A program made the position numbers and the translations under genes. From positions 4,974-68,973 of the forward strand of contig CAYOEA010000009.1 of NCBI GenBank assembly GCA_964402995.1: a stretch of DNA of 64,000 bases. The letters run 5' to 3'. The notes beneath the pieces were generated by a model, which was given only the letters and a program-made list of their open reading frames with translations, had not been told where the DNA came from and searched no databases. The stretch's first letter is position 1; the number at the start of each line of letters is the position of its first letter. Shown here one piece after another: positions 1,258-63,031 of this stretch. This DNA comes from an uncultured Methanosarcinales archaeon (GTDB taxonomy: Archaea > Nanobdellota > Nanobdellia > Woesearchaeales > GCA-2686295).

Positions 1258-1276
1258 TTCTTAGTTAAAAAATAAA

Positions 1277-2491
1277 CTATCTCATATCCGCTATCGCAGT
1301 TGCTTTTGCCTTATTATATTGCGAACCTAATGAAGCATCTCCATATCCAGTCTGAACTCCATTCGGATAAAAAATCGCTTTTCCGTAACCAATTATATCG
1401 CCTGGTTTTACATGAGTTTTACTAAACCATTTTGGTTGCCTTGAAAATGGACCTTCATAACATGGATCAACCCAACCATCTATCATATGTGTTAAAGATA
1501 AATTATCAATTGATACTGAAGTTGAATTCTGTCTAACTTGATCTAAAAATTTATCTGCAGGATTATTATAAAATTGTATTCCTACATGCTGCGATAATTC
1601 AAATTGCTCCACTGTTTCTATATCTATATGTTCAAATGGTTTTATAGTGTAACTATTAGTTATATTTAGTGGTTTGTGAAGTTTATCAGCATATTCTTTT
1701 CGTTTTGAAAATATGATACCGCCATCTATTTTATTTATACTTGAAGCATTTTTACTTGCATGAACTAAAACATAACCATCTTTAAATTTGACATTCGGTG
1801 AAATTTTCATATATCCTTCTTTTTGTAACCATTCTAATTGTTCATTTGTTGTTATTTCTATTCCCATATCTAAACTTCTAGCTTTTTCAAATATTTCTTC
1901 TAAGTTTTTACTAGTTATTGCAGGAACTTTTACTTGAATTAAATCCATTATTGTAATATCCATTCCTCTTAATATTTGATCTTTAAAAGGATCTATCCTG
2001 AAAAATGACTGTACAACTCTTTCGCCTTTATCAAAATATATATCGTTTGCAGAATAATTGTTTAGTTCTACTGTTGTTCCATCATTATGAGCATAAAACA
2101 TTGTTCCATGATTTGGAACAAAACAACCTAATCTTCTTACACTGCTTCTTCCATCTATTACTGGAAAAATAAAATCTAGATTAAATTCAGGAATTTGCCT
2201 GTCATGTTTTATTTCTTCTGTTAATAATATTTCATTCTTACTTCTTGCAACTATTTTTGTTTTATTCTGATCAAAACTAAAATCCACAGGATAACTTCCT
2301 ACTAACTCAAAACTATCTTCTACTTGAGCTAATTTTAAATCAAGTGTTGATGGTTGTAATCTTTTTTTATCCTTTTCAAAATCAATACCTGGATTAATTT
2401 TAATTAAACCATAATCTACTGCTTGAGATATCCCTCTGTCATTTAGAAATCTTAAACCTTTTAAGTTTATATTTAGAGGATCTATCTTCAT
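1277..2491 (-). CDS. dcd: Two-domain dCTP deaminase-like protein (DCD type)
   Basis: LNDRGI, LQPSTLDLKL and GRSSVRRLG in the first half; GWVDPCYEG and YG..LGSQY in the second half; 404 aa is about twice a single domain. Confidence 0.72.
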   Translation of the reverse strand: MKIDPLNINLKGLRFLNDRGISQAVDYGLIKINPGIDFEKDKKRLQPSTLDLKLAQVEDSFELVGSYPVDFSFDQNKTKIVARSKNEILLTEEIKHDRQIPEFNLDFIFPVIDGRSSVRRLGCFVPNHGTMFYAHNDGTTVELNNYSANDIYFDKGERVVQSFFRIDPFKDQILRGMDITIMDLIQVKVPAITSKNLEEIFEKARSLDMGIEITTNEQLEWLQKEGYMKISPNVKFKDGYVLVHASKNASSINKIDGGIIFSKRKEYADKLHKPLNITNSYTIKPFEHIDIETVEQFELSQHVGIQFYNNPADKFLDQVRQNSTSVSIDNLSLTHMIDGWVDPCYEGPFSRQPKWFSKTHVKPGDIIGYGKAIFYPNGVQTGYGDASLGSQYNKAKATAIADMR

Positions 2492-2543
2492 ATATTAAGA
2501 AAATCTCACATATTTATAAATCTAAGCTGAATAAAAAAAATTA

Positions 2544-5500: not shown

Positions 5501-6035
5501 GAGCTTTTTCTTTTTTATTTTCATATACACTTATTCCTGCAATCTCTTCAATTATTCCTCTTCGCTCAACAGTAGACATTTCAACTAATTGAGTAATGTC
5601 TCCTTGCAGAATTATATTATATCCATTTGGATCAACGTTTGCAGCACCTAATACTTCAAGTATTTGTTGTCTTGTTCGGACTTCATCATTGATTAAGTAT
5701 TTTGATTGACCTGAAGGTCTTATTCTTCTAGATAGTTTTAGTACAGGTTCTTTTACTGGAAATATTTTTTTAGAATTGTCAAATGTGATTGATACTTCTG
5801 CATCTTTTGCAGGATTTTTTGATTTTCCACCATTATAGATTAGATTAGCAGTTTTTTCTGCACGTAGTGATTTTGCTGATGATTTTCCTAATACAAAACA
5901 AATTGCATCTAGTACATTGCTTTTTCCAGAACCATTTGGACCAAGGATAACATTAAATTTATCACCGAGCGGAATTTCGGTTTTATTTGCGAAGGATTTA
6001 AACCCCTTCATCTCAAGCTTTAATATCTTGGTCAT
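2544..6035 (-). CDS. smc: Chromosome segregation protein SMC
   Basis: Walker A GPNGSGKS, long coiled coils, central hinge (GTATFLPL), LSGGE signature, Walker B VLDEVD. Confidence 0.98.
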   Translation of the reverse strand: MTKILKLEMKGFKSFANKTEIPLGDKFNVILGPNGSGKSNVLDAICFVLGKSSAKSLRAEKTANLIYNGGKSKNPAKDAEVSITFDNSKKIFPVKEPVLKLSRRIRPSGQSKYLINDEVRTRQQILEVLGAANVDPNGYNIILQGDITQLVEMSTVERRGIIEEIAGISVYENKKEKALRELNRVEEKLNEAEIILAERKGFIRELKKEKTQAEKFKELDTNIKRNRATLLNTQIVTKKTKQSDYDKIISTSKDKIEKLQTTYDELKVKVIKNREEISKINAEVESKGEKEQVELNRDIEKIKVEFALNKQRLETIKQELDKISIRKTELEEGKTELQRKITAVEKNKKDAVRMTGTKESEFAKLELKLTEFKTKHDIGNAQELDGRIEEIDTRAEEIQVEINDLRETQQNLFREKDKYEIILQNIDGKIDKVLSVEQENKSGIQKLKEDKKAFTKTTEELNSVCEEDTSISVQLDTARSKLLSRKEELSRFNIQSAGHREQAAGDRAANAILKSPITGVHGQVSQLGSVSSDYSLALGIAAGNRIRSIVVETDGVASECIRTLREKRLGTATFLPLNRLHAPMIRSDLRAMKGRGVIGLALDLVKYDAKYQKVFQYVFGNTVVVEDLEVARKLGIGGFRMVTKAGDLVETSGAMQGGYRSKVPGLGFAEKEATEKISILESEIADFQSVIDRLDAKQREHETLAAQLRTQKAELEAEIIKAEKTLHIESGDLDADKEEKKKIKTEIKELEVKTDDTTALIQQKNVELAKLKMEKQSFREKINAIRNPRLLAEINTFDQKREELKEDIAELKGELRNANSELNTILLPEMENINKILDQQLGKEKADFDSEKKTLESTIKEQTKELADKEKKQKIFYSQYKGLFEKRSKFEKEISDNENKMNNKMDELRLTENKSNIVSIERARIVGELEGLEEEYKQFKEVALFRNKPEDEIKLEIKQFERMVSELGAVNMKALELYEKAQTEFEALNTKKESLTTEREDILVMINEIDSKKRELFMKTYEVIDKNFQKIFATLSTKGKAYINLEDRKDPFKGGVEIKVKLSTKKFMDIRSLSGGEKTMTALAFLFAVQEHEPASFYVLDEVDAALDKKNSEKLAELVLAYSKRAQYIMISHNDGVITTADSLFGVSMDQAHGVSKVTSLKI

Positions 6036-6131
6036 GTTATCTCTAAACTATCCTCTTTTTTGTAATAAATGTTCAATACGTATTTATTATATAAATATTA
6101 CTAAAATGTGAAGCTAAATTCAACAAAAATC

Positions 6132-6980
6132 TTAGCTAAAAAAGCGTTCAACATTAGAAAATCTTATTTTTACGTAATCTTTTGCTAAAAGTCCGCTATT
6201 TTTTAGAGTCTCTAAAGCCCCCATTACATGCGTACTTCCTTTTGGTATTCTAAACCCTGCGCTTCGACTTAATTCATCTAATTGTTTTAATCCTTCTGCA
6301 CGTGCTATTATTGAGGCCGCTGCAACTTCAACATAACTACTCTCTGCTTTTGTTTCAGCTATATCTCCAACTCTACATCCTGGGTATAAGTCAACTACGT
6401 GAATTGAAATCTCAGTTTTCAACTTTACATTTACTTGTCTGTGAAGCTTATCCAATAGTCGAGTCACATTATCCACTTTTGTTAGCTCATTATACTCATA
6501 AGGCTTTAAGGAAACTACATAATAATTATTCGGGAAAGTTTTAACAAGACGCTGCGCAAGTATCATAATTGATGCATCTTCAAAAGTTTTTGAATCACCA
6601 ACGCCCATATTTTCGAGCTGCTCCCTTTCAGAACTGTTTGCTCTAAATCCTGCGACGACTATTCCTCCAAATGTATCTCCTTTTAGTGTTTCATCGCTTC
6701 CAACTATTTCTTCTGCAAGTGGTTCAAGTCTTGTTTGCTCATCTGCCGATTTAGTAAATTTAGAATTAGAAGTGGATTTTGAAACTTTTTGTTTTGCTTC
6801 TAATCCAAGAAATATCCTAACATCATTTGCAATCTCTGATTTCCCTTGAACCAATATTTTTCCTGTTTGATATAGAATTACGGTACATGGTCCTTGCATT
6901 CTTGCAATTTCATATTGTTTTGGACTTACAAAATTAAAGCCTTTAGCTTCTAATTTCTTTAGATTATCAATGTCTACCAA
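6132..6980 (-). CDS. rnhC: Ribonuclease HIII
   Basis: N-terminal TBP-like segment (TVILYQTGKILVQG), GSDE..KGD motif, VAAASIIAR; TTG start with AGGTGA Shine-Dalgarno inside the rnhB 3' end. Confidence 0.85.
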   Translation of the reverse strand: MVDIDNLKKLEAKGFNFVSPKQYEIARMQGPCTVILYQTGKILVQGKSEIANDVRIFLGLEAKQKVSKSTSNSKFTKSADEQTRLEPLAEEIVGSDETLKGDTFGGIVVAGFRANSSEREQLENMGVGDSKTFEDASIMILAQRLVKTFPNNYYVVSLKPYEYNELTKVDNVTRLLDKLHRQVNVKLKTEISIHVVDLYPGCRVGDIAETKAESSYVEVAAASIIARAEGLKQLDELSRSAGFRIPKGSTHVMGALETLKNSGLLAKDYVKIRFSNVERFFS

Positions 6981-6983
6981 TTT

Positions 6984-7640
6984 TTAAAACTCACCTAAAC
7001 GTTTCTGAGCAGCTTCTTTTTTCTTATTCTGCCAAGTCTCCCATGATTTTCTAAAATATTTTGAGAATTCAGTTTTATTCCAATATTTAGCTACAAATTT
7101 TTGAGTTATTGGATCTGATGCGTATCCTGAGCCAACTTCTTTTTTAATTGCTTTACGCATTTTCTCCATTTCTCTATCTCGAATAACTTTTGCAATTATA
7201 CTTGCAGCACCAACTATTAAATAATTTAAATCAGCTTTATGTTCTACTATTATTTCAGTCTTTTTTCGACCAAGTCTTTTCTTAATATAATCAGAATAAC
7301 TCTTCAAATTTCTACTTGGACAATCAAGTATTGCCTTATCAGGTTTTGCGGTCTTTACAAGCGCAGCTGTAGTTCTAGCTTCTATCCAATTCAAATTATC
7401 GGTCTTTGAATTTAATGCATCATCAACTTCACCAGGCGTCACAATTACATAATCAACTTTACATAATTCTTTAACTATAGGAAATAATTCTTCTCGCTTT
7501 TTCTTAGAAAGTAACTTAGAATCTTTTACACCTATTGCATGTAGTTTAAATTCATCTTCTTTTTTGATGCTTGCAATAGCCATTACTAATGGACCTAAAA
7601 CAGGTCCTCTGCCAGCTTCATCTACTCCTGCAATAATCAT
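6984..7640 (-). CDS. rnhB: Ribonuclease HII
   Basis: GVDEAGRGPVLGP, DSK, EHKAD, AASIIAKV.RD, GSGY.SDP. Confidence 0.97.
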   Translation of the reverse strand: MIIAGVDEAGRGPVLGPLVMAIASIKKEDEFKLHAIGVKDSKLLSKKKREELFPIVKELCKVDYVIVTPGEVDDALNSKTDNLNWIEARTTAALVKTAKPDKAILDCPSRNLKSYSDYIKKRLGRKKTEIIVEHKADLNYLIVGAASIIAKVIRDREMEKMRKAIKKEVGSGYASDPITQKFVAKYWNKTEFSKYFRKSWETWQNKKKEAAQKRLGEF

Positions 7641-7720: not shown

Positions 7721-8743
7721 CTACTTCCCTATCATATCAATAAGTTCTTCTTCACGCATTTCTAAACCTTTCTGATATAAATCATTCACAGTTGTACTCA
7801 TAAAATTTAATGCTTTTCCTTGCATATCCGAGAAAAAAATCGAACCTGAATTAATAGCCACGTTTGAAGAGGGATTCTTACCTGAAATAGAAGTCCAATC
7901 AGAACTTTCAGTGTATAAATTTCCAATTTGAAACTCATCTTTATTTGAATCTCCAATAACTCCACTGAAATCAGCATCAGTTATTTTTATTTGACGATCA
8001 TCAGCAATATTAAAAACTATATTATTCTTTTCTTGATCTTGATATAAATCATTGCCTAAGAATAATTCATCAGAAATTTGCGCATTTAAATCATCATAAT
8101 AGTTATCAAAATGATCAGATATTTTATTCAAAACTTCTTGATATTCCGCATTTTTTGATTGTAATTTCTCTTCAACAGCTTGCCAAACTTTAGGACTTGC
8201 AGTTTCTTGGAAAATTTCCACATATTCTCCACCATAATATCCATCATATCCTGTTTTATTATAAGTAGCATTAGTTATAGTTTCTCCTGTATAACTACCT
8301 TCACCCATCCCTATCCCTTCTGAATAAGAATCCCCAAGATCAACGATTGTAGAATCAATTCCAAAATCCTCAAATCTTTTCCATAACTGATTATCTAAAG
8401 AATCATTAGGGTTAAAAATCAAAATACTCAATTTTTTTGTACCATCAGGATAATAAGTTTCAGATAATCTATATTTCAAACTACTTTCGCCAATAACTAA
8501 ATCAAGAGAAAAATTCTTTGGTTCTAGTGGTTCAATTACAGGTTCAACAACTTCAAATTCAACATCTTCTACAACATCTGCAATTGTATCAATTGTTTCT
8601 TCTACAACTTGTTCTTGTCGATGAACTTTATTTTCAAGATTTGAGTGTCTTGACCCGCTATTTGAGCATGATGAGAAAACTGCAGTTGCAAGCAATGTTG
8701 TTGCTAACAATCCAATATATAATCCTTTTTTCATTTGTTTCAC
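7721..8743 (-). CDS. Hypothetical acidic lipoprotein
   Basis: 340-aa ORF with basic N-terminus, hydrophobic stretch and lipobox-like VFSSC; no recognisable domain. Confidence 0.6.
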   Translation of the reverse strand: MKQMKKGLYIGLLATTLLATAVFSSCSNSGSRHSNLENKVHRQEQVVEETIDTIADVVEDVEFEVVEPVIEPLEPKNFSLDLVIGESSLKYRLSETYYPDGTKKLSILIFNPNDSLDNQLWKRFEDFGIDSTIVDLGDSYSEGIGMGEGSYTGETITNATYNKTGYDGYYGGEYVEIFQETASPKVWQAVEEKLQSKNAEYQEVLNKISDHFDNYYDDLNAQISDELFLGNDLYQDQEKNNIVFNIADDRQIKITDADFSGVIGDSNKDEFQIGNLYTESSDWTSISGKNPSSNVAINSGSIFFSDMQGKALNFMSTTVNDLYQKGLEMREEELIDMIGK

Positions 8744-8876: not shown

Positions 8877-9737
8877 ATGAGAAGAAAACTCATCAAACAA
8901 GGAAAAACTGGACTCACAATATATTTACCTAAAAAATGGGTTGATGAGAAAGAATTAAACTCTGAAGATGAAGTAGATATTGAAATTACGAATGAAGGAT
9001 TATTAATCAATCCAACCACTACAAAAAAAAGAAGTGAGATCACAATCCAAAATCCAGGAGATTCAGAAAGCATGATTAGAACAGTTCTTGTAAATGCATA
9101 CAGATCAGGGTTTGATAAAATAATTATCGAACATAAAAATGAAAAATTAATCCATTCAATTGTTCAAAAACACCTTTTAGGATTTGAAACATTCAAACAA
9201 AAAAACAATGAATTCTCAATTGAAAGTGTAGCAGAACCTAGCTTTGAAGAATTTGATCGCCTAGTAGAAAAAATATTATTCATTCTAATTGACATCATCA
9301 AAGAATTAGGGAATAACAATATTGTAGGCATTGAACAAATTCAAAAATACGATAATTTCCTAAAAAGAGCAATTAGCAAAAATATCCTTACAATCAAAAC
9401 ACCATTTCAATCTTGGAGTTTTTTAAGCAACCTTGTTCAAATAGGAAGGCAAGCACATCACCTACACAAATTCAAAGAAAAAGAATTTAGTTCAAAAGAA
9501 AAAGAGTTAATCAGCCTCATTGACAAAATGATCCATTTAGTTCAAAAAGCATATCTAAAAAAAAACACAGACTCACTTCAAGAACTTCACGAAGTCATGA
9601 ATAAAGAAATCTACAATATAGGTTTTAATGCAATGAAAACAGAAAATCCAGTTAATGTTCATTATTTAATAACCATTGCAAGAAATATATATCTTTCAAA
9701 TAGTGCGCTAATTGCAATTATTCAGTCGAACACATAA
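8877..9737 (+). CDS. AbrB/MazE-domain + PhoU-like phosphate uptake regulator
   Basis: N-terminal RRKLIKQGKTGLTIYLPKKWV (AbrB-type) followed by R...AYRSGFDKI and helical PhoU-like repeats, typical of the archaeal family. Confidence 0.75.
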   Translation: MRRKLIKQGKTGLTIYLPKKWVDEKELNSEDEVDIEITNEGLLINPTTTKKRSEITIQNPGDSESMIRTVLVNAYRSGFDKIIIEHKNEKLIHSIVQKHLLGFETFKQKNNEFSIESVAEPSFEEFDRLVEKILFILIDIIKELGNNNIVGIEQIQKYDNFLKRAISKNILTIKTPFQSWSFLSNLVQIGRQAHHLHKFKEKEFSSKEKELISLIDKMIHLVQKAYLKKNTDSLQELHEVMNKEIYNIGFNAMKTENPVNVHYLITIARNIYLSNSALIAIIQSNT

Positions 9738-11046
9738 CTTGATAATTCGCCTTTAAATTTTTATAATCTTTCCTAGCTAAAGAAAACAATTCAAAACTTT
9801 TTTGCATATCAGATTTTTCAGGAAGAATATCCTCAACCATTTTCTGCACTAAAGAACCCATAATTTCTTTATATTGACTAGAAATAGAAGATAATACTTC
9901 ATTATCTTCAGAAGATTTCAAAATATTATTCACCCCAACGTCTGCTTGATGATATCTTGAAAGAATTTTATTAACATATTCAAAACGTTTAACGTCTGCA
10001 ATCTGTTCAACAATACCTGAAGAAAACTTTTTAGAAGAAACTGCATCTTCAATTAAATTTTTCTTGGACATTGCATTTTCATAATCATTAAACATTTGCA
10101 TAATATTTCTAAGAACTCTACCTGATTGATAAGCTAAATTTAAAGATTGTTTTTCATCATCAGTTTTTGCAGTAGATAAATATAAATCCTTTTTCTTTAT
10201 TTCAATTTCTCTAAAAACTTTCAGGTTTTCAGGTTTATTTAATTGCATCCAAAAATCATCAGACCCAATCATATAAGGTGTGTCTAAAAGCATATAATCA
10301 TCAACAAAGCCAAGCTTTAAACTATTCAAATCAATTCTAGTATCACCTATAAAATTTTCAGCATAAGAATCCAAAGTCCATTTTGTTAAATGCGAACCAT
10401 GTTTTTTTGCAGTGGATTCAAACAGTCCAATTAAGTAAACAAAGTCGGAAGGAAGTTCAAATTCAATTCCGGATGAATTTGCTTTTGAAACTAGTTTTGA
10501 GGATAAAGGAAAATCATTTTCTAAAACAGAAGGAACACTCCCACTAAGATAAGAAGTTCCGCCATCAATTAAGAAATCTTCTTCTTGCGTAGTTAAAGCA
10601 GTTGCAATGATAGAAGGTAATTTTGCGCTTATTTTATTTGACATACTAAGTCCATGTTTAATTTTGTCAACTACACCATCAATAGTTTGATTAGATGAAT
10701 ACATTAATTCCTCACCCAAAGTTAAACCATCAACAAAACTTTGTTTATTTGAAGTTGGAGATGTTTCTTCAATATCTACAAACTCAACACCCAAATCAGA
10801 ATTCTCAGATAATTCTTTTAATGCTTTAGTTAATTTTACTTCAATCCCATTCACCATTTCTGATCGATTATCTTTAGAAAAACTTCCAGATTCTATTTCA
10901 TAATTATAAGACCCATCTAATCCATGCACTGAAAATAAAGTAGGATTCTTAGTCTTAACCATTCTATAAACTAGGTCAAGATGAGTATTCTTTGCCCCTT
11001 TAAATTCAGGCGTTACTCGCGTTTCATATCTTAAGTCGTTCCACAT
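9718..11046 (-). CDS. Hypothetical protein
   Basis: 442-aa open frame, convergent with and overlapping the PhoU-like gene by 20 bp; no motif recognised. Confidence 0.55.
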   Translation of the reverse strand: MWNDLRYETRVTPEFKGAKNTHLDLVYRMVKTKNPTLFSVHGLDGSYNYEIESGSFSKDNRSEMVNGIEVKLTKALKELSENSDLGVEFVDIEETSPTSNKQSFVDGLTLGEELMYSSNQTIDGVVDKIKHGLSMSNKISAKLPSIIATALTTQEEDFLIDGGTSYLSGSVPSVLENDFPLSSKLVSKANSSGIEFELPSDFVYLIGLFESTAKKHGSHLTKWTLDSYAENFIGDTRIDLNSLKLGFVDDYMLLDTPYMIGSDDFWMQLNKPENLKVFREIEIKKKDLYLSTAKTDDEKQSLNLAYQSGRVLRNIMQMFNDYENAMSKKNLIEDAVSSKKFSSGIVEQIADVKRFEYVNKILSRYHQADVGVNNILKSSEDNEVLSSISSQYKEIMGSLVQKMVEDILPEKSDMQKSFELFSLARKDYKNLKANYQVMCSTE

Positions 11047-15582: not shown

Positions 15583-15705
15583 GCCGCGGTCGCATAGCCT
15601 GGTATTGCGCAGGATTGCTATGTACAATTGTACGTATGAAAACCTACAATATCTCGCAGAGATCCTGTTCCTTTGGAATCATGGGTTCAAATCCCATTCG
15701 CGGCG
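15583..15705 (+). tRNA. tRNA-Ser(GCT) with a 41-nt intron at 37/38 (15621-15661)
   Basis: GCCGCGG/TCGCGGC acceptor stem, G73, CAGGA/TCCTG anticodon stem, long variable arm; BHB central helix TTGC/GCAG with TA|T and AG|A bulges (outer helix relaxed). Confidence 0.94.
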
Positions 15706-22130: not shown

Positions 22131-24617
22131 CTAACCATTAATTTTATATCTTCCATGTTTTTTTAAAATTTTATCAGGTACTGTAAAATTAAACATATTC
22201 CAACAATTCAATAATTCTTCAGGATTGCCTATTTCATGTAACTTTATACTAGGAATTAATCTATCATAAGCTTTGTAAAGATTTAGAGGTCTACCACCAT
22301 TTAAGCTCATATTATTCAATAACATTCCTAAAGCACGACTTGTTTCAGCAAGGGATATATTTCCGGGAATAATTCCTAAAAATGCTTCTTGATTATTATC
22401 AAGTCTTCTAAATCCTTTTTGCGAATTCATTATATGATATATTCTTTCTGAATCAAAATATGCGAGTGATTTTAAATATTTATTTTCAGTAAATTCATAA
22501 GTCAAAACTCTATTATTATTTCCCTTATCAATATAAATTCCTAACATTTCATTTACAGATTTATCATAAAATTCAGACAGAACAATGATAGATGAAACAA
22601 TTTTGTTAGCATGAATTATTCTTGGTTCCAATCCTCCAAATGAATTAGTATGATAAGCTCCTTTTTTAGATGGATTTGAAGTTATTGGTGAGACTTTCGG
22701 ATGAAGATGATTAACTATTGATTTATCTTCACTTATCATAGTTGACGAATTATCTTGATTAAGTTTTGCTTTCATTTCTTTTTTCGAGAAAACTTTCACC
22801 CCAAAAGACTCTAAATATTTGTCATTTGTTACTCTCGTAACTTTTGGTTTTAAACCTGCAAAATGATCATTTATTGTTGAAACTATATTAACAAATCTTG
22901 AATTAGAATATATAGATAAAGAATTAAGTCCTTTTGACAATTTTAGAACTTCAGCTGAGAAATTTATTGGTTCTAAAAGTAGAAAATTCTCATCATTAAA
23001 ATCAATTCGATTAAATTCTCCATTAACATTTTCTTCTATTGAGAAAATTTTTGTTTTTTCAAAATATTTTTTATGAGTTCCTTTATAATGTATTTTTAGT
23101 TTTCCAGCCTGATCTTTTTGTATAACTAATAAACCGTTTTGTAAATTTTTTGAGGTGGCAGAACTTTGAAAACTAACTACTACTTCATCACTAGTTGCTA
23201 AAGGATATTTTATCCAATCATATTCAAGCCCTGTTTCTTGAACTAATAATTCAATTGTATTATCAATTAATTCATGATCTATTTCAGTATTAAAAATAAA
23301 AGGTAAACAATTTATCTTCTGTAATTGTTTATTTACAAACGAATAATCTTTTAATCCGAAAAAACCTAAAGTTCTTTCCCTGGTTGAAGCTACAGCTTTA
23401 GAAATAGAAGTTTCATTTAAATAATCATAAATGATTTCATGCAGAGGAAACATTCTTGGAATATTATCTGCAAGCATTCTAATTGTAATGGGAATAGAGA
23501 TAGGTTTCTCAACAGACATATTTTCTATTGGACTAATACCATTGAATAAAATATCATTTTGATCAAATCTTACTAGAACATCATTTTTATATGTACTTGA
23601 TAAAATTACTTGTTCTACGCCTACTTTATCTTTATATTCACCTTTATAACTCTGTTCAATTCTTAATCCATTTGAATCTAAAGACTTGAAAGCTAAAACT
23701 CCAACTAATTTATTTTTTGGTCCTCTTTTAGAATTAATATTATCATTTCTAGATTTAAAAAATTTTGCAACACCAGATTGATACCCTGAAGAAAAATACT
23801 TAATAGTATCAAATGCTAATTCTGATTCAGTTATGAATTTTGTTATTACTTCTTTAACTTTATCAACATTTACAGTAATATCAGTTATCTCAAAATCTAA
23901 TGATTTATCTTTTAACATGATTTGATCCAGCTTACGACTTTGTTTATTAGCATATGAAAAATCTATGGTTTCTTTCTTTTGTTGTAATTCTGCAGCGCCT
24001 TTTTCATAAAGTTCTAAAAAATCAATTTTTTTTGTTGAGGTATTCTCCTTAGCTCCAACTATTTCATCTGAAATTGATGAACCTTCATTATCTGAAGCAA
24101 ATTCAAAATTCATTTTTGAAGGTATAATTCTTGAACGATTTCTCTTTGTATTCTTTACAGTTTGTGCAACATCTTTTACAGTTAAGTTTTCTGGTTCATC
24201 AGATTCTTCATTTTGTATAGACTTTAATGGTTTAAAATATGCTCCAAGACCTAAACTTTTTGATTCAGATTCATTTAATTTAACATATTTCGTATTTGAT
24301 TCATCCCACATAAAATTAAATAGTTTCTTTTCTGGTTGGTTTTCTTTTACTAATCCTCTGTAAGAAATAAATTCTAAGAAATCAAATTCATCAAACTTCA
24401 AAACAGAAGTTCCAATTACATTATTATTTGCAACGAAGGTTAAATAATATATTTGATCTTCAATTTCGGGAGAATATAATTTAGATTTAATATCTTCATT
24501 AAAGCCAATACTATTTTTTAATTCATTTATTACTAAGACCAATTCATCAATTTTTGGATGAAATGATGGTTCAAGATGACTATTATTCAATCTTGTTATA
24601 AGGTCTTTACTTTGCAT
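22131..24617 (-). CDS. Large hypothetical protein
   Basis: 828-aa open frame just downstream of tRNA-Arg; no motif recognised. Confidence 0.65.
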   Translation of the reverse strand: MQSKDLITRLNNSHLEPSFHPKIDELVLVINELKNSIGFNEDIKSKLYSPEIEDQIYYLTFVANNNVIGTSVLKFDEFDFLEFISYRGLVKENQPEKKLFNFMWDESNTKYVKLNESESKSLGLGAYFKPLKSIQNEESDEPENLTVKDVAQTVKNTKRNRSRIIPSKMNFEFASDNEGSSISDEIVGAKENTSTKKIDFLELYEKGAAELQQKKETIDFSYANKQSRKLDQIMLKDKSLDFEITDITVNVDKVKEVITKFITESELAFDTIKYFSSGYQSGVAKFFKSRNDNINSKRGPKNKLVGVLAFKSLDSNGLRIEQSYKGEYKDKVGVEQVILSSTYKNDVLVRFDQNDILFNGISPIENMSVEKPISIPITIRMLADNIPRMFPLHEIIYDYLNETSISKAVASTRERTLGFFGLKDYSFVNKQLQKINCLPFIFNTEIDHELIDNTIELLVQETGLEYDWIKYPLATSDEVVVSFQSSATSKNLQNGLLVIQKDQAGKLKIHYKGTHKKYFEKTKIFSIEENVNGEFNRIDFNDENFLLLEPINFSAEVLKLSKGLNSLSIYSNSRFVNIVSTINDHFAGLKPKVTRVTNDKYLESFGVKVFSKKEMKAKLNQDNSSTMISEDKSIVNHLHPKVSPITSNPSKKGAYHTNSFGGLEPRIIHANKIVSSIIVLSEFYDKSVNEMLGIYIDKGNNNRVLTYEFTENKYLKSLAYFDSERIYHIMNSQKGFRRLDNNQEAFLGIIPGNISLAETSRALGMLLNNMSLNGGRPLNLYKAYDRLIPSIKLHEIGNPEELLNCWNMFNFTVPDKILKKHGRYKING

Positions 24618-32821: not shown

Positions 32822-33373
32822 ATGAAGAAAACTTTAGCAGGAATAATCTTAACCTGTCTAAGTGTCACGATGTTTTCACAGACTAATACAAGCATAAATA
32901 CCAACAAAATAGAATTAAAGGCATCTAACCATTTATACGACACTATAAGAGATGCCAATTCTTTTGAAGCTAAAACATTAGAAAATAACACTTATAAAAT
33001 AAAAGAAACAGAAAATGAATTCTTTATGAAATTGGATAGCACAGATAAACAATATTTAATGGACAAAATAGACGAAATAGACGAAGAAATACCTAAAACA
33101 GTGAATAACTATACAAGTATTTTATGTGATGTCTTAAACAAAAACAATAGAAGAAACCCAATCTCAATTAATGACTTAATAGATCAAAAAGATAATAATT
33201 ATGAACTAATATATGTATCCGTAAAAAAAGTTAAAAACATGAACATCTTTGTTTTTCAATATAGCATTAATGGAGAACAAAATAGAATTACTTACGCGGA
33301 ACGAGATGTAAAAATTGCAGATACATTAATTGAAGAGTTAAAAGAAATTAGAAATAAAAAAAAGAAATATTAA
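32822..33373 (+). CDS. Hypothetical secreted protein
   Basis: Signal-peptide-like N-terminus MKKTLAGIILTCLSVTMFSQ; very low GC. Confidence 0.6.
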   Translation: MKKTLAGIILTCLSVTMFSQTNTSINTNKIELKASNHLYDTIRDANSFEAKTLENNTYKIKETENEFFMKLDSTDKQYLMDKIDEIDEEIPKTVNNYTSILCDVLNKNNRRNPISINDLIDQKDNNYELIYVSVKKVKNMNIFVFQYSINGEQNRITYAERDVKIADTLIEELKEIRNKKKKY

Positions 33374-33384
33374 TTAAAAAAGTT

Positions 33385-33696
33385 TTAACCAGTATGATAA
33401 TAACCAGCCATACAAACACCGCCTCCAGTGCAAGTAGAAGAACAAGAACCTCCCGTCCAAGAACCACACGAACCAACTTTATATGCATAACCATCATCAT
33501 CAAATTCGAAACAACCACATGATAATGACTGAGTCGCAGGTGGTCTACTTGGTCTTTGACCAGCAATATTCTCATCATTTAAATCTATTGGCACTATTTT
33601 TGTCGCTGATTTACCACCAATTAATACAACTAGTGCAACAATTGCCACCATTGCTACAATTGCAATATAAACCATTGCATTATTATTTTCAGACAT
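33385..33696 (-). CDS. Small membrane-anchored/secreted 6-Cys protein, cassette 1
   Basis: Leader MSENNNAMVYIAIVAMVAIVALVV...NIAG, then a Gly/Ser-rich core with 6 Cys; AGGTGA SD. Confidence 0.8.
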   Translation of the reverse strand: MSENNNAMVYIAIVAMVAIVALVVLIGGKSATKIVPIDLNDENIAGQRPSRPPATQSLSCGCFEFDDDGYAYKVGSCGSWTGGSCSSTCTGGGVCMAGYYHTG

Positions 33697-33777
33697 TTTA
33701 TCACCTTTTAGTTTAATTATAAACTTAATAAGAAAAATAATCAGATTAATACTATTTAAATATTTCTACAACTCTAT
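33630..33777. repeat. Constant unit of the cassette array (leader + promoter), copy 1
   Basis: Near-identical to 34751-34899; more diverged copy at about 34166-34322. Confidence 0.85.
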
Positions 33778-33939
33778 ATCAACAAAATAATAATCAGAAT
33801 ACACCTATCACATAAATTTCTAACCCCAAAAAAAACTGTGTTTTAAAAATATTTATAGTATAGAATATATGTTAAAGAAAAATTATAAAATTAAAGAAAA
33901 AAAGAAAAAAATTCAAGATTTAAATTTGAGATTATATCT

Positions 33940-34239
33940 TTATTCCCAGTTAGCTGCTGCGCCAGCATTACATCTAGTTACACAACCTGAATCATATCCT
34001 GTACAACATCTTTCACATTCTGATGCTGGAGGAGCAGTACAACCAGAGCTATACATAGTATTACCGCCAGTAGATAATTTTCCTGAAGATGCAAAAGCTA
34101 ATCCTGCTTGATTTGCGTCATCCATGCTTAATACTTTTGTTGTTGAATTTCCACTAATAACAACTACTAGTGCTACTATTGCTACCATTGCTACAATTGC
34201 AATATAAACCATTGTATTATGATCATTATTTTCTACCAT
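33940..34239 (-). CDS. Small membrane-anchored/secreted 6-Cys protein, cassette 2
   Basis: Leader MVENNDHNTMVYIAIVAMVAIVALVV...NQAG; core with C-x7-C-x2-CC-x6-C-x3-C. Confidence 0.8.
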   Translation of the reverse strand: MVENNDHNTMVYIAIVAMVAIVALVVVISGNSTTKVLSMDDANQAGLAFASSGKLSTGGNTMYSSGCTAPPASECERCCTGYDSGCVTRCNAGAAANWE

Positions 34240-34389
34240 CTTATCACCTTTTAATTTAATTTTAACTTAATAATACCTCATATTTTAGATTAATACTATT
34301 TAAATATTTCTACAACTCTATCTTGACAAAAAAATAATCTTAATTTAAAAATCAAAGAAGAAATAAATAAAAAATTAAAAAAAAATTAA

Positions 34390-34818
34390 TTAGTAAATTG
34401 ATCCTGCTGCTGCCTTAGCCGAACACCCACTACCACCGGAATAACCAGAAGGAGGATTACATTCACACTGTCCACTACCTTCCTTTGAACAAGTACCAGT
34501 TACAGTTGAACCATCAGAATCTTTTGTAGCAGTACATGTTAACCAACACCAAGTACGAGCCGCATCAGCTTCATGCCAACCACTTGCACCAGGAAGACCA
34601 TATGATCCAAATGATTCTAAAGGATTAGATGCTTGAGTTGATCTTAAAAAAATTCTTGAACTTGCTAATCCTGCTGAATTTGCATCAACATCATTCACAA
34701 TAGGTTCTAAACTTACAACTTTTGTTGCTGAATTTCCATTAATAACTACTACTAGTGCAACAATTGCCACCATTGCTACAATTGCAATGTAAACCATTGC
34801 ATTATTATTTTCTACCAT
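34390..34818 (-). CDS. Small membrane-anchored/secreted 6-Cys protein, cassette 3
   Basis: Leader MVENNNAMVYIAIVAMVAIVALVV...NSAG; longer core with 6 Cys. Confidence 0.8.
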   Translation of the reverse strand: MVENNNAMVYIAIVAMVAIVALVVVINGNSATKVVSLEPIVNDVDANSAGLASSRIFLRSTQASNPLESFGSYGLPGASGWHEADAARTWCWLTCTATKDSDGSTVTGTCSKEGSGQCECNPPSGYSGGSGCSAKAAAGSIY

Positions 34819-34887
34819 TATATCACCTTTTAGTTTAATTATAAACTTAATAAGAAAAATAATCAGATTAAATCTATTTAAATATTT

Positions 34888-35658
34888 CTACAACTCTATC
34901 TCGACAGGACAATGATCAGAGCCTAATATTTCAGGCAATATTTTTGCAGATTTTAACTTTCCAATCATTTTCTGAGAGACTAAAAAATAATCTATTCGCC
35001 AGCCAACATTTCTGCTTCGAGCACCCATTCTATAACTCCACCATGAATATGCGTCTTCTTTGTCAGGGTAGAAATGTCTAAAACTATCAACAAGTCCAGC
35101 TTCTAAATGCTTAGTCATTCCTTCTCGTTCTCTATCTGAAAACCCAGGACTTCCAAGTTTAGTTGCAGTAGTCATATTTGGCTTTGAATTTTTCAAGTCA
35201 ATTTCTTTATGCGCAGCATTTAAGTCCCCGCATATTACAACTGGTTTTTTCTTATCTAAATCCATTATAAAGTTTCTAAACGCATTATCCCATTCGACTC
35301 TATAATCAATTCTTGCTAACATATCTTTTGAATTTGGAGTATAAACATTTACTAAAAAAAAGTCTTCATATTCTAAACTTATAACTCTACCTTCTTGATC
35401 GTGTTCTTCAATACCCATATCATAAATTACCGCGTAAGGTTCAACTTTTGAGAAAACTGCTGTGCCTGAATAACCCTTTTTTTCTGCACTATTCCAATAT
35501 TTATATGGATAGTCTAGCAGCATTAAATCTACTTGTTCAGGTCTGGCTTTTGTTTCTTGTAAACATAATACATCAGGTTTCTCTGAGTTTACAAATTCGT
35601 AGAAATTTTTCTTTATTATTGCTCTTATTCCATTTACATTCCAAGAAATTAGTTTCAT
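34888..35658 (-). CDS. xth: Exodeoxyribonuclease III / AP endonuclease
   Basis: SWNVNG, LCLQETK, GYSGTA, NVYTPN, CGDLN.AH, WRIDYF, SDHCPV. Confidence 0.97.
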   Translation of the reverse strand: MKLISWNVNGIRAIIKKNFYEFVNSEKPDVLCLQETKARPEQVDLMLLDYPYKYWNSAEKKGYSGTAVFSKVEPYAVIYDMGIEEHDQEGRVISLEYEDFFLVNVYTPNSKDMLARIDYRVEWDNAFRNFIMDLDKKKPVVICGDLNAAHKEIDLKNSKPNMTTATKLGSPGFSDREREGMTKHLEAGLVDSFRHFYPDKEDAYSWWSYRMGARSRNVGWRIDYFLVSQKMIGKLKSAKILPEILGSDHCPVEIEL

Positions 35659-46247: not shown

Positions 46248-47426
46248 TTATGATATTTTCTGCGGATGCGCGTAAATCTTATGATCCAGATAGAAAGATG
46301 CAATTATTATTCCTATCGCTATAATGATTGCGTTAACTGCAAATATACTGCTAATACCCCATATTGAAACTATTAGACCGCTAAATATGAAACTTATGAA
46401 ACTTCCAATTTTTGCAATTGACATATATGAGCCAACTATTTCTCCTTCTTTTTTTGTCTTTTCTCCAATATCAGACATTAAACTCCATGCAGAAACATTC
46501 CAAATAGCACCACCAACTCCTTGGAACAATAATAATATCAATAAAACCCAATAAGTATTTGTTGTTGATACAAAAAACATAAAGAATGCATAGATCCCAC
46601 AACCTACAAGTATCAAAGTTCCTCGATTAAATTTATCACTTAATTGTCCAAAAAAGAATTGAAACAGGTTAGTCACACCTAAGAAAAACATTGCAAGACC
46701 TATTGAGCTGTAAGTCAAACCTAATTTCTCAATTATTAAAAGTGGCATAAATACTTGTATTGCAGGTGTTGTTGCATGCATAACCATTCCAAGTATTGCC
46801 ATAGCTTTGAGCGGTCTTTCTGCTAAAAAATTCTTAATTCCAGCGTACAAATTAAAACTTTTTTTGCTTGGTTTTACTTTTAGTTTTGGTGTTCTATAAA
46901 CAAGCATAAATGATAATGCAAGTAAAATAACTGCTGAAAGTATAAATGGTGCTTTAATGAATAATTTATCAACTAATAATCCTCCAATTATTGGTGCAAC
47001 TATTGCTCCAATATGACCTATTGAAAAACTCCAACCAGCATATTTTCCTCTTTCTTTATTTGTCAATGAATCTTCTATTTTTGCAATTGCAACTAATGTT
47101 ACTGCAACAAAAGCAACTGCGCCAAATAATCTTGCACCTGCAATGAATATCCAATGATTGCCAATTAAATAAAATATTATTGCAGTGATTTGAAGAATCA
47201 TTCCTATGATTATAACCCACATCCGACCAATTTCATCAGAAAGTTTTCCCATTATAGAAGATGAAAAAATTGTAAATAATGGTGATAAAGAAAATATTAA
47301 TCCTATTTGAAAAGCATCTAGTCCTAATGATTTAACATAAGGTGCCAGTATTGGCATAAATAAATAGACTGCAAATAAATACAATACATTTATTCCTGTT
47401 GCTTGTATATATTCTTTATAGTGCAT
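46248..47426 (-). CDS. MFS transporter
   Basis: About 12 TM helices; motif A GKLSDEIGR and GQLSDKFNR. Confidence 0.93.
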   Translation of the reverse strand: MHYKEYIQATGINVLYLFAVYLFMPILAPYVKSLGLDAFQIGLIFSLSPLFTIFSSSIMGKLSDEIGRMWVIIIGMILQITAIIFYLIGNHWIFIAGARLFGAVAFVAVTLVAIAKIEDSLTNKERGKYAGWSFSIGHIGAIVAPIIGGLLVDKLFIKAPFILSAVILLALSFMLVYRTPKLKVKPSKKSFNLYAGIKNFLAERPLKAMAILGMVMHATTPAIQVFMPLLIIEKLGLTYSSIGLAMFFLGVTNLFQFFFGQLSDKFNRGTLILVGCGIYAFFMFFVSTTNTYWVLLILLLFQGVGGAIWNVSAWSLMSDIGEKTKKEGEIVGSYMSIAKIGSFISFIFSGLIVSIWGISSIFAVNAIIIAIGIIIASFYLDHKIYAHPQKIS

Positions 47427-49033: not shown

Positions 49034-50452
49034 TTGGTAGAAAAAATAGAAAAGAAAATTAAAGTCGCTTCTAAAACAAAAAAAGTACATAAGAAGCCAA
49101 CACATAAATCAGAACATAAGACTCAAACTAAATCTGGTTCAAAAGCAAATAGTAGTAAAACTACTAAAGCAAAAAAATGCGATCCTAGACATAAAAAGTT
49201 CTTTATTGCAGCAGGTGTCTTAATTATAATTGTAGCAGTTATTTTAATTGTTAATTTTATAGGCAATTCAAACACGATAATTGAAGATGATCAAGTAATA
49301 GCTTATGTTGATGGAGCTCCAATTTATCAAAGTGAGTACGCACAACTTGAAACTCAACTTCCACCTGGCTTTGAAGAAACAATTTCAAAAACAGAATTAG
49401 TTTCTCAGCTTATTGATAAAAAACTTCTTTTAACAAAAGCAAATCAAGCAGGCATTAACCTTGACGATGAAGTTCAAGAAGTTCTTGATTCTAATGGAAT
49501 GACTTTAGCTCAACTTGAATCAGTTATTCTATCTCAAGGAATTGACATGCAAGAATTCAAAGATCAACTTTTAATCTTGGTTTACTTAAATGACAGTTTA
49601 TTTTCAAAGATTACTGCTTCAGAAGAGAAAATTAATAACTTCTACCAAGCTAGTCCTGAAATGTTCATTGTTCCTGCAAGTGCTCAAACAAAACATGTTC
49701 TTGTAACAATTACTACTGAAAGAACAGATAGTAAAGCTTTTGATTTAATTAATCAAATTAAAGCAAAATATGAAGCTGACAACTCAGTTTTTTGTGATTT
49801 AGTTACAGAATATTCAGAAGATCCTGGCAGTGTAGAAAACTGTGGAGAATATGGTTCTGATGTATTTCCTAACTTTGTTCCTGAATACAAAGAACTTGCA
49901 CTTTCATTAGAAAATGGAGCACATGGAGTTGCTAAAACAGACTTTGGTTATCATTTAATTATAACTATAGAAAAAACTCCTGAAACAATAGTTTCATTAG
50001 AAGAAGCAACACCACAAATTGAAAACTTTTTAACTTTAGAAAAACAAAAAGAAGTTTTTGATGCTTACATGATCGAGCTTAGAGTTAATTCAGATATTGT
50101 AAACTGTTATGAAACACCTGAAAATGAAATGTGTTCAAATTTTAATGCAGGCACAACTACAATTGTAGTCGAAGAAACAGATTTAGCAGCACTTGCTCAG
50201 TGTATAACTGATAGTGGGGCTAAAATGTATGGTGCTAACTGGTGCAGTCATTGTAATAATCAAAAAGCAATGTTTGAAGATGCTAAATCATTACTTCCTT
50301 ACGTTGAATGTGCAATTGAAAACGATCCTCGTGGACAAACTCCTGCTTGTCAAGAAGCAGGTATTGCTGGCTACCCAACATGGGTTATTAATGGTCAAGA
50401 ATATCCTGGTGAACAAGCAATCGAGACTCTCGCTCAATTAACAGCCTGTTAA
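49034..50452 (+). CDS. Membrane-anchored SurA/PrsA-type PPIase fused to a C-terminal thioredoxin-like domain
   Basis: TM anchor; SurA-N-like helices; parvulin motifs HVLV, YSEDPGS, KTDFGYHLI; C-terminal MYGANWCSHC...GYPTW. Confidence 0.85.
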   Translation: MVEKIEKKIKVASKTKKVHKKPTHKSEHKTQTKSGSKANSSKTTKAKKCDPRHKKFFIAAGVLIIIVAVILIVNFIGNSNTIIEDDQVIAYVDGAPIYQSEYAQLETQLPPGFEETISKTELVSQLIDKKLLLTKANQAGINLDDEVQEVLDSNGMTLAQLESVILSQGIDMQEFKDQLLILVYLNDSLFSKITASEEKINNFYQASPEMFIVPASAQTKHVLVTITTERTDSKAFDLINQIKAKYEADNSVFCDLVTEYSEDPGSVENCGEYGSDVFPNFVPEYKELALSLENGAHGVAKTDFGYHLIITIEKTPETIVSLEEATPQIENFLTLEKQKEVFDAYMIELRVNSDIVNCYETPENEMCSNFNAGTTTIVVEETDLAALAQCITDSGAKMYGANWCSHCNNQKAMFEDAKSLLPYVECAIENDPRGQTPACQEAGIAGYPTWVINGQEYPGEQAIETLAQLTAC

Positions 50453-62593: not shown

Positions 62594-63031
62594 TTAACAA
62601 GAAACTCCTATCCAAGAATCAACTCGAGCGTAACATGCATCACAACCTGAATCATAAGTAACCCAATCTGATCCGCATACAGGACCTCTATCATCTACAC
62701 ATTCTTTATGTTGTTTTTCTGCTTGAGTACATACATGTTCAAATGGACAAGCCATATAATATTTTATACCCACACCTGCTTTTTCTACAGCACATTCACT
62801 TGGATAAGTTACTCCGTCATTTCCACAAACTTCAAACATGACTTTGCAAGGAACTTCTTCAGGTTTAGGATCTTCAATCCCTAAATTTATATTAGCATTA
62901 ACATCTTGTCCTGCATCAGAATCATCATCTACATCATCATTTTCATCTGGCATTTCTTCGGTTGTACTACATGCAGAAAGCATTAGTAAAGTCAATATTA
63001 GAATTATAAAAATAGTTAGTTTCATTTTCAT
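62594..63031 (-). CDS. Lipoprotein with two Kazal-type protease inhibitor domains
   Basis: Lipobox LSAC; VCGNDGVTYPSEC and PVCGSDWVTYDSGC. Confidence 0.85.
   Translation of the reverse strand: MKMKLTIFIILILTLLMLSACSTTEEMPDENDDVDDDSDAGQDVNANINLGIEDPKPEEVPCKVMFEVCGNDGVTYPSECAVEKAGVGIKYYMACPFEHVCTQAEKQHKECVDDRGPVCGSDWVTYDSGCDACYARVDSWIGVSC

Follow-up and report, generated by a model that had tools for sequence, protein, structure and literature searches.

A shared N-terminal leader joins unrelated cysteine-rich cores in a large archaeal family of probably exported small proteins

What holds three neighbouring genes together if the DNA at their 5' ends is closely similar and the proteins they encode end in unrelated, cysteine-rich cores? 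This question is raised by a locus on contig CAYOEA010000009.1, of which a stretch of 64 kb, hereafter called the window, was analysed. At positions 33385 to 34899 the window carries three co-oriented genes, U1, U2 and U3, which an earlier note had regarded as a diversifying repertoire of disulfide-bonded peptides, possibly bacteriocin precursors. We lean, with moderate confidence, towards a somewhat different answer: the three genes would be self-promoted cassettes for small disulfide-bonded proteins that are exported by a pre-pro leader specific to the lineage and released by cleavage at a conserved motif, and the 5' modules of the cassettes would recombine with each other.

U1-U3 form a tandem array of paralogues in which each gene has the same succession of elements. 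The features of the array are the following.

33385..33696, minus strand: U1 gene, 103 aa, leader and six-Cys core
33940..34239, minus strand: U2 gene, 99 aa, leader and six-Cys core with the pattern C-x7-C-x2-CC-x6-C-x3-C...W
34390..34818, minus strand: U3 gene, 142 aa, leader and six-Cys core, the latter predicted to be beta-rich
33752..33777, minus strand: putative U1 promoter element, a 26-mer common to all units, with the BRE/TATA-like sequence GAAATATTTAAATA; function assigned by the archaeal TATA consensus
34296..34321, minus strand: putative U2 promoter element, 26-mer as in U1
34874..34899, minus strand: putative U3 promoter element, 26-mer as in U1, overlapping the 3' end of the ExoIII-like gene
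33700..33705, minus strand: U1 Shine-Dalgarno sequence GGTGAT, 3 nt before the ATG
34243..34248, minus strand: U2 Shine-Dalgarno sequence GGTGAT, 3 nt before the ATG
34822..34827, minus strand: U3 Shine-Dalgarno sequence GGTGAT, 3 nt before the ATG
33619..33672, minus strand: U1 hydrophobic helix VYIAIVAMVAIVALVVLI, aa 9-26, assigned from its identity to the modelled helices of U2 and U3
34156..34209, minus strand: U2 hydrophobic helix, aa 11-28 (modelled helix 6-30)
34741..34794, minus strand: U3 hydrophobic helix, aa 9-26 (modelled helix 3-28)
33556..33570, minus strand: U1 post-helix motif N-I-A-G-Q, proposed processing site
34099..34113, minus strand: U2 post-helix motif N-Q-A-G-L, at the family motif position
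34666..34680, minus strand: U3 post-helix motif N-S-A-G-L, at the family motif position
33388..33555, minus strand: coding region of the variable U1 core, six Cys
33943..34098, minus strand: coding region of the variable U2 core, six Cys
34393..34665, minus strand: coding region of the variable U3 core, six Cys
34330..34389, minus strand: T-rich tract (T9, T6) directly 3' of the U3 stop codon, putative terminator
~33880-33939, minus strand: similar T-rich tract after U2
~33340-33384, minus strand: similar T-rich tract after U1

The 26-nt element ATAGAGTTGTAGAAATATTTAAATAG is present in exactly three copies in the window, one upstream of each gene, and a box resembling the transcription factor B recognition element (BRE) and TATA sequence lies ~55 nt upstream of each ATG. 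A leader-coding 29-mer likewise occurs three times in the window at ≤1 mismatch, compared to no occurrence in 100 shuffles. Since each cassette has its own promoter element, Shine-Dalgarno sequence and 3' T-rich tract, each may be a separate transcription unit; judged by archaeal consensus signals, the T-rich tracts are likely oligo-T terminators. Identity between the units is 78-86% in the upstream 110 nt and 84-90% in the 81 nt of leader coding sequence, and drops to 48-52% in the cores, which is the level of shuffled controls. U1 and U3 have a common block of 206 nt with 89% identity. Each of the three proteins contains six cysteines, all of them C-terminal and differently spaced, in a core rich in Gly, Ser and Thr. 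The earlier note had described a promoter, Shine-Dalgarno sequence and leader shared by three co-oriented genes, U1 and U3 DNA almost identical over about 150 bp, and unalignable Gly/Ser-rich cores with exactly six cysteines each at differing spacing, and all of this agrees with what we found. It had also seen no modifying enzyme or transporter next to the genes, and indeed none is encoded beside the array among the Pfam-scanned open reading frames (ORFs) of ≥110 aa.

Is the leader a peculiarity of this locus? A word-indexed search retrieved only ten relatives, and the part common to them runs past the hydrophobic stretch to a second motif. From the first 50-60 residues of ten sequences, U1-U3 included, a leader profile of 55 positions was built (alignment A6) and searched exhaustively as a hidden Markov model (HMM) against 1.84 billion cluster representatives (clusters at 50% identity). 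At E≤1e-3 it matched 362 cluster representatives, 22 of them with E≤1e-10, and in all 150 listed hits (150/150) the match is N-terminal. U1, U2 and U3, which are all among the ten building sequences of the profile, gave E values of 1e-19 to 8e-19. Column statistics were derived from 152 sequences aligned to the profile. The leader signature reads M-x-E-[NK]-[NK]-N-N-[FYM]-[AV]-[YLI]-[IL]-[AS]-I-V-A-I-V-A-[IV]-V-[AG]-[LVIM]-V-[VMI]-[LM], then x-x-G. The helix is separated by 17-35 residues (median 24) from the motif [ND]-[LIV]-[AGV]-G-[QE]-A, whose G is found in 137/152 sequences, the following Q/E in 102/152 and the next Ala in 111/152; N or D occupies position -3 in 131/152. U1-U3 themselves carry the leader helix and N-x-A-G. 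No model of Pfam or NCBIfam fits the leader or the cores: searches of U1-U3 (E≤10) gave nothing meaningful, and no recurrent family appeared among 150 members. We found no account of this leader or family in full-text searches of the literature. The closest match there, small Cys-rich proteins encoded in a variable region of Asgard viruses, was rejected, as these are Zn-binding HNH-like nucleases and unrelated (PMC11529989). Taken together, the architecture that the earlier note had seen in three genes, a constant leader in front of unrelated Cys-rich cores, is real and general, as it recurs in 362 clusters and in tandem arrays on several other archaeal contigs. The leader marks a large, uncatalogued archaeal family of small proteins that are probably exported and disulfide-bonded.

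The family was also looked for at the genome level. A protein-alignment scan of GTDB genomes gave 23 pattern matches, none of which was confirmed by tblastn, a step that is defeated by the short, low-complexity leader. A rescan of GTDB with a DNA pattern led to two loci (L006, L007) and a pattern scan of metagenomes to five; the census of arrays is hence small. Among viral contigs, 12 pattern matches included no family member, and one of them was an ordinary bacterial pilin of the G↓FTLIE type. Beside the family member of L007, two genes (3187-4143 and 4145-4498, both minus strand) encode proteins with an N-terminal helix of more divergent sequence, behind which Q-A-G-L-A or S-A-G-E-A follows, so that the class of leaders with a helix and A-G-x-A may be broader than the profile detects.

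We then turn to the part behind the motif, the cargo. Its median length is 64 residues (10th-90th percentile 34-167), and it is rich in Gly, Ser, Thr and Cys. Cysteine accounts for 6.5% of the residues in family cores vs 0.91% in 20 housekeeping proteins of the window. Beyond the motif, 120 proteins have an even, non-zero number of cysteines, 3 an odd number and 14 none at all, six being the commonest count (47 proteins); for the split between odd and even counts a binomial test gives p = 6e-32. Intramolecular disulfides require an even number of cysteines, whereas lanthionine chemistry, azole chemistry and metal binding do not. Our main argument is the combination of even parity with an N-terminal membrane helix, because of which the cargo would fold outside the cell; it points to exported, disulfide-bonded domains.

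Apart from the cysteines, the cargoes have little in common. An all-against-all BLASTP comparison of 132 cores resulted in 92 components, 79 of them singletons, and only a few cargoes have the common module C-x-D-[ST]-D-G-G ... C-x-x-G-C-x-x-G-x-C. Some are large and of surface type, such as a beta-helix protein of 626 aa and a protein of 452 aa with 56 cysteines, and three members (P0068, P0091, P0098) have merely 5-10 residues beyond the motif. For the U3 core, no homologue was found among 5.8 billion proteins, and the U1 core is an orphan except for P0001, a strain variant differing by 1 aa. The U2 core has relatives only in P0004, P0005 and P0041, in which its cysteine pattern is fixed. 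It is always located behind this leader, and a profile of the U2 core family retrieved leader-bearing relatives only. One member, P0017 (249 aa), contains three full units of leader and core in one ORF with no intervening stops (5, 4 and 4 Cys) and is either a fused array or a read-through in gene calling. Two other explanations were rejected: cytoplasmic zinc-binding proteins, in view of the N-terminal membrane helix, the commonest cysteine count of six and the lack of CxxC...CxxC zinc-ribbon pairs in U1-U3, and spurious ORFs, in view of the conserved family, the dN/dS <1 of an orthologous core and the promoter and ribosome-binding site that each gene has for itself.

To which class of signal does the leader belong? 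A lipobox ([LVI][ASTVI][GAS]C) at the end of the hydrophobic region (h-region) was found in 3/152 members and in none of U1-U3, and the N-terminal regions of U1-U3 (MSENNNAM, MVENNDHNTM, MVENNNAM) contain no Arg for a twin-arginine (Tat) signal. Across the family the N-terminal region is near neutral (mean net charge -0.16) and precedes an h-region of 18-20 residues; both features are atypical for cleaved Sec signals, in which a positively charged N-terminal region and an h-region of 7-15 residues are expected. G-x-[GS] directly follows the helix in 63/152 members, and both positions are occupied by small residues in 93/152. The G-[QE]-A motif satisfies the -3/-1 rule (G-x-A) but lies ~24 residues from the helix. 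Compared to the N-terminal region, the flank behind the helix is the more acidic one (mean -1.1 over 25 residues), which favours an N-in/C-out orientation of the leader helix. Models of U2 and U3 by AlphaFold2 (AF2) consist of an N-terminal helix of ~25 residues, a disordered linker and a compact C-terminal part; the motif lies inside the linker, whose predicted local distance difference test score (pLDDT) is <50 in both. Other exported proteins of the window use ordinary signals: lipoboxes at 7721-8743 and 62594-63031, a basic anchor in the PPIase at 49034-50452, and a standard signal in the 183-aa neighbour of the array. The leader would therefore be a distinct class within the same cell. 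It lacks the defining features of the pilin, lipoprotein and Tat classes, and a nearby maturase, as expected for a RiPP (ribosomally synthesized and post-translationally modified peptide), was not found in the window or, apart from one candidate beside L012, at five other loci.

On this basis we propose that each gene of the array, driven by its own promoter, encodes a small exported protein of two modules. The first, the leader, begins with a near-neutral start rich in Asn, Glu and Lys (M-x-E-[NK]-[NK]-N-N) and continues with an Ile/Val/Ala helix of 18-20 residues that is predicted to insert N-in/C-out, an acidic, disordered spacer of ~24 residues and the nearly invariant [ND]-[LIV]-[AGV]-G-[QE]-A. 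The second is an interchangeable cargo, usually of 35-110 residues and with an even number of cysteines, mostly six, that would fold by disulfide formation outside the cell. The leader helix would target the precursor to the membrane and retain it there until a protease encoded elsewhere cuts the conserved motif, either at G↓Q/E or after the Ala. N-terminal Gln and Glu are both able to cyclise to pyroglutamate, so a cut at G↓Q/E would create an N-terminus that can be closed in this way. Cleavage would free a soluble, disulfide-rich mini-protein that may act at the cell surface or on neighbouring cells, in adhesion or antagonism. Recombination or gene conversion between cassettes would keep promoter and leader alike within a genome and could re-pair leaders and cargoes, each cargo being under ordinary purifying selection.

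Several points weigh against this proposal. The N-terminal region has no positive charge of the Sec type, and the N-in topology rests only on the acidic C-flank and the cysteine parity. At ~24 residues from the helix, the motif would be unusually distant for a signal peptidase I site, and the scans of the window revealed no candidate protease. Directly after the G, the motifs of U1-U3 deviate from the consensus (L-A in U2 and U3, Q-R in U1). A knottin or defensin fold would be defined by the connectivity of six cysteines; each of U1-U3 has six, but at differing spacing, the AF2 models of U2 and U3 are of low confidence (pLDDT 53 and 59), and Foldseek gave no match to the PDB at E<1 for the two. 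The evidence for recombination, described below, is one short contig from a metagenome, and an error of assembly could have produced it. Finally, the function, be it adhesion, antagonism or signalling, is a guess.

The most serious competitor, which we nevertheless consider unlikely, assumes that the leader is not cleaved at all. U1-U3 and their relatives would then be type II membrane proteins anchored by the N-terminal helix, with the acidic spacer as a stalk and G-[QE]-A as a docking or hinge element, for instance for the S-layer or a partner protein, and the array would encode a set of surface knobs by which the cell attaches to a host or a substrate. All evidence for export applies equally to this explanation. 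In addition, the 18-20 strongly hydrophobic residues, which the models extend to ~25 helical residues, form a segment longer than is usual for cleaved signal peptides, no protease was found in the window, and some of the cargoes are large surface-type domains such as the beta-helix. On the other hand, a near-invariant [AGV]-G-[QE]-A within a disordered, otherwise freely varying linker looks more like the recognition site of an enzyme, and this is also how we think the conserved small-residue motif is best explained. Moreover, the members with only 5-10 residues past the motif would display nothing; they make better sense as released peptides than as anchored domains.

If the motif is a site for an enzyme, is this enzyme, or any modifying partner, encoded next to the arrays? 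Arrays of 2-5 genes with the same leader were found on other archaeal contigs, most of them with their own copies of the TATA and Shine-Dalgarno elements. The loci are the following.

L009/L010: five co-oriented same-leader genes with 6, 8, 12, 6 and 6 Cys, directly before an archaeal 16S rRNA gene
L006/L035: two same-leader genes before an archaeal ribosomal-protein operon
L012: two same-leader genes, one with a cargo without Cys
L034: two same-leader genes
L008: P0004, the U2 orthologue, near GatD/GatE as in the window
L015: P0041, U2-like, between transposase genes

In the array of L009/L010, at least four of the five genes have a conserved TATA and Shine-Dalgarno copy of their own. The rRNA gene of L009 (9140-10039, plus strand; archaeal small-subunit rRNA, 877 bits, first 913 model positions) starts ~540 nt past the five cassettes. 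The cassette of L015 is flanked by a DDE_Tnp_1 transposase gene (543-1451, minus strand) and a fragment of the IS66 family (2208-2753, plus strand), suggesting that at least this one sits in a mobile or rearranged region. In L012, a gene for a 491-aa B12-binding radical SAM protein (4299-5774, minus strand) is divergently oriented to the leader array, whose first gene is at 6052-6387 (plus strand) and whose second gene (6596-6850) encodes an acidic repeat cargo with no cysteine. L013, L014 and L031, which belong to the same population as L012 (≥99.9% identical where compared), span all or part of the radical SAM stretch. This is the sole enzyme-like neighbour across the loci, and its position may be a coincidence. 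The neighbours vary at every locus and include glycogen genes, ribosomal proteins, UDG and NMD3 and, in L012 alone, the B12-radical SAM gene; hence no partner gene is conserved.

This bears on the bacteriocin idea of the earlier note, according to which the proteins would be RiPP precursors with a maturase and an exporter encoded elsewhere, their Cys, Ser and Thr residues being converted to lanthionines or azoles and the leader being cut at a double-glycine-like A/G-G. Many paralogues with a constant leader and unrelated cores rich in Cys, Ser, Thr and Gly do recall the prochlorosins, the [LIV]-[AG]-G motif resembles a double-glycine cleavage site, and 1/150 members weakly matches the Pfam model "YxzE-like putative bacteriocin". 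But neither a C39 peptidase nor an ABC exporter is encoded in the window or beside the arrays of L006, L008, L009 and L015, and the same holds for radical SAM genes. Pfam scans of the window ORFs of ≥110 aa and precomputed Pfam annotations of the neighbours at five other loci did not reveal a maturase, for which the divergent radical SAM gene of L012 is the sole candidate. Furthermore, the even cysteine parity fits disulfides, whereas lanthionine or azole chemistry would not lead one to expect it, the leader holds a membrane-spanning helix instead of being a soluble recognition leader, and cargoes reach 626 aa. We therefore regard the RiPP explanation as improbable, and this part of the earlier note is not supported.

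Even less probable are type IV pilin-like proteins, whose helix would be exposed by a prepilin peptidase and whose Cys-rich parts would form variable pilin heads. A short polar N-terminus, a hydrophobic helix of ~20 residues and a small globular domain would fit such proteins, and pilin-like genes often come in tandem sets. However, a class III prepilin site ([KRDE][GA]↓[ALIFQMVED][ILMVTAS]x3) before the helix was found in 0/152 members, neither U1-U3 nor the 150 members matched the N-terminal pilin models of Pfam and NCBIfam, the conserved motif follows the helix at a place where pilins have none, and no pilus ATPase or peptidase is encoded beside the arrays.

Do the cores diversify? The earlier note had expected hypervariable cores and had named invariance among strains as an observation that would speak against it. 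In four independent contigs the array is 100% identical to the window, and related arrays from different samples are ≥99.9% identical. The only core with orthologues, that of U2, evolves under purifying selection, as judged from its comparison with P0004: 32/41 core residues are identical (dN 0.16, dS 0.67, dN/dS ~0.24), compared to 16/30 in the N-terminus and helix and a barely alignable spacer, so that the core is the best conserved part. Hypervariability of the cores is therefore not supported. The pattern is one of many distinct cargoes, each of them conserved, and of a leader that is kept similar among the paralogues of one genome. With the promoter and the synonymous sites of the leader 80-90% identical and the cores unalignable, either the 5' module would have been homogenised or copied between cassettes, or cargoes would have been exchanged.

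One contig shows what such an event may look like. L005 (ENA ERZ27316115 k141_133832; 1,263 bp), from another sample, corresponds to positions 33598-34920 of the window and has a terminal overlap of 141 nt, so that it closes into a circle in the k=141 assembly graph. The unit is 1,122 bp long, precisely as far as the U1 leader lies from that of U3. The contig leads from U2 to the promoter and start of U1 fused to the U3 core, and back to U2, with the crossover inside a stretch of 36 nt that is identical in the U1 and U3 leaders; beyond the hybrid zone, there are 0 differences from the window. L005 is consistent with the expected product of homologous recombination between the leaders of U1 and U3, either an excised circle or a tandem duplication. 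Of the diversification proposed by the earlier note, recombination at the leader is consistent with this hybrid, and hypervariability is not supported. The weakest explanation, targeted hypermutation or cassette switching as in diversity-generating retroelements or antigenic variation, by which the cores would be actively diversified within the population, can draw on the constant 5' module with unrelated 3' parts and on the single hybrid circular contig, and is most improbable given that the scans of the window revealed no reverse transcriptase, template repeat or silent cassette store, that repeats within 33300-35000 are restricted to the promoter and leader parts, and that arrays are identical or nearly so between contigs and samples and the U2 core is under purifying selection.

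The window has a G+C content of 30% and encodes archaeal housekeeping functions (among them CDP-archaeol synthase, GatD/GatE, topoisomerase VI A and B, CDC48, HerA/NurA, RIO1, SMC, PPDK). The source organism is an archaeon, and its assignment to the DPANN archaea is plausible from the low G+C content and the gene content. On one side, the array is flanked by genes for an ExoIII-like nuclease, a 212-aa protein without Pfam match, GatE and GatD, and on the other by a convergent gene for the 183-aa signal-peptide protein and by PPDK. Pfam scans of the window ORFs of ≥110 aa revealed neither a peptidase nor an ABC transporter, and likewise no radical SAM enzyme and no reverse transcriptase; an MFS permease is encoded 11 kb from the array (46248-47426).

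Two further genes of the window concern exported proteins. The gene at 62594-63031 (minus strand) encodes a lipoprotein-like protein of 145 aa with an LSAC lipobox, 11 cysteines and two Kazal-type serine protease inhibitor domains (PF00050 3.7e-10, PF07648 6.9e-10), and is a further disulfide-rich exported protein of the genome that carries the array. Kazal domains are unusual in archaea. The gene at 49034-50452 (plus strand) encodes a protein of 472 aa whose N-terminus is strongly basic and which has a single membrane anchor as well as SurA_N and PPIC rotamase domains; it looks like an extracytoplasmic foldase of the PrsA/SurA type and could serve exported proteins. Elsewhere, a tRNA match of 123 nt at 15583-15705 (plus strand; Rfam 40.6 bits), missed by ARAGORN, is presumably an intron-containing archaeal tRNA, and two RNase HII-family genes are adjacent (6132-6980 and 6984-7640, both minus strand), the first with ~90 extra N-terminal residues. 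ORFs without Pfam match are located at 22131-24617 (minus strand, 828 aa), 9718-11046 (minus strand, 442 aa), 8877-9737 (plus strand, 286 aa) and 7721-8743 (minus strand, 340 aa, with the lipobox signal FSSC).

Are there known systems of this kind? In its logic, the closest parallel is the animal prepropeptide superfamily and, among prokaryotes, the prochlorosin-type sets of one leader and many cores, neither of which is homologous. Conotoxins and defensins likewise have a conserved signal and a pro-region that closes with a processing site, followed by a mature part that is unrelated or strongly divergent and whose cysteines are even in number, often six; they also come as many paralogues, often clustered, and a mature N-terminal Gln is able to form pyroglutamate. 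In contrast to them, our family has a long helix, a neutral N-terminal region and G-[QE]-A instead of a basic processing site, its cleavage is a proposal, and an orthologous core is under purifying selection where evolution is accelerated in the animal peptides. Prochlorosin/NHLP-type precursors resemble the family in their dozens of genes with one leader and unrelated Cys-containing cores, and in the end of the leader, where a hydrophobic residue is followed by the small residues A/G-G. They differ from it in that here no LanM-like maturase or C39-ABC exporter is encoded nearby, the leader contains a transmembrane helix, the cysteine parity indicates disulfides and cargoes have up to hundreds of residues. 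Halocin C8 and other archaeocins are, like the proposed products, small, disulfide-rich archaeal peptides exported from a longer precursor. In halocin C8 the signal is of the Tat type and the precursor includes the immunity protein as well; by contrast, there is no Arg in the three leaders of the window and no conserved immunity-like partner, nor is there sequence similarity, as the searches of 5.8 and 1.8 billion proteins retrieved leader-sharing members only. With archaeal Sec, lipoprotein and prepilin signals, finally, the leader shares an N-terminal hydrophobic targeting segment, and it departs from them by being non-basic, by its h-region of 18-20 residues and by the extra conserved motif ~24 residues downstream.

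What would this mean for the organism? Many protein families specific to DPANN archaea are membrane-bound or extracellular and of unknown function, and small-genome archaea encode many such lineage-specific proteins (PMC8204110). The family described here would add a sequence handle, since with the leader HMM candidate surface or secreted effectors can be listed in any small-genome archaeal genome. We tentatively propose, at rather less than an even chance, that the leader is a new archaeal export-and-processing signal, namely a bipartite pre-pro leader with a dedicated protease or sorting enzyme, which defines a superfamily whose members number in the hundreds, both disulfide-rich mini-proteins and short peptides, encoded in self-promoted arrays that recombine at the leader; as a prokaryotic counterpart of the venom and defensin superfamilies, it would be a means by which small-genome archaea attach to, signal to or attack their hosts or neighbours. 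For a small-genome archaeon one may reasonably guess, and no more than guess, that the proteins adhere to neighbouring cells or antagonise them. From the invariant motif one would predict an enzyme for processing or sorting, which phylogenetic profiling could bring to light, and the locus would be a clean example of concerted evolution of a promoter-plus-leader module beside unrelated cargoes. If the cargoes are released, the family would represent a large untapped set of small, disulfide-stabilised archaeal folds, some of which may be antimicrobial or adhesive.

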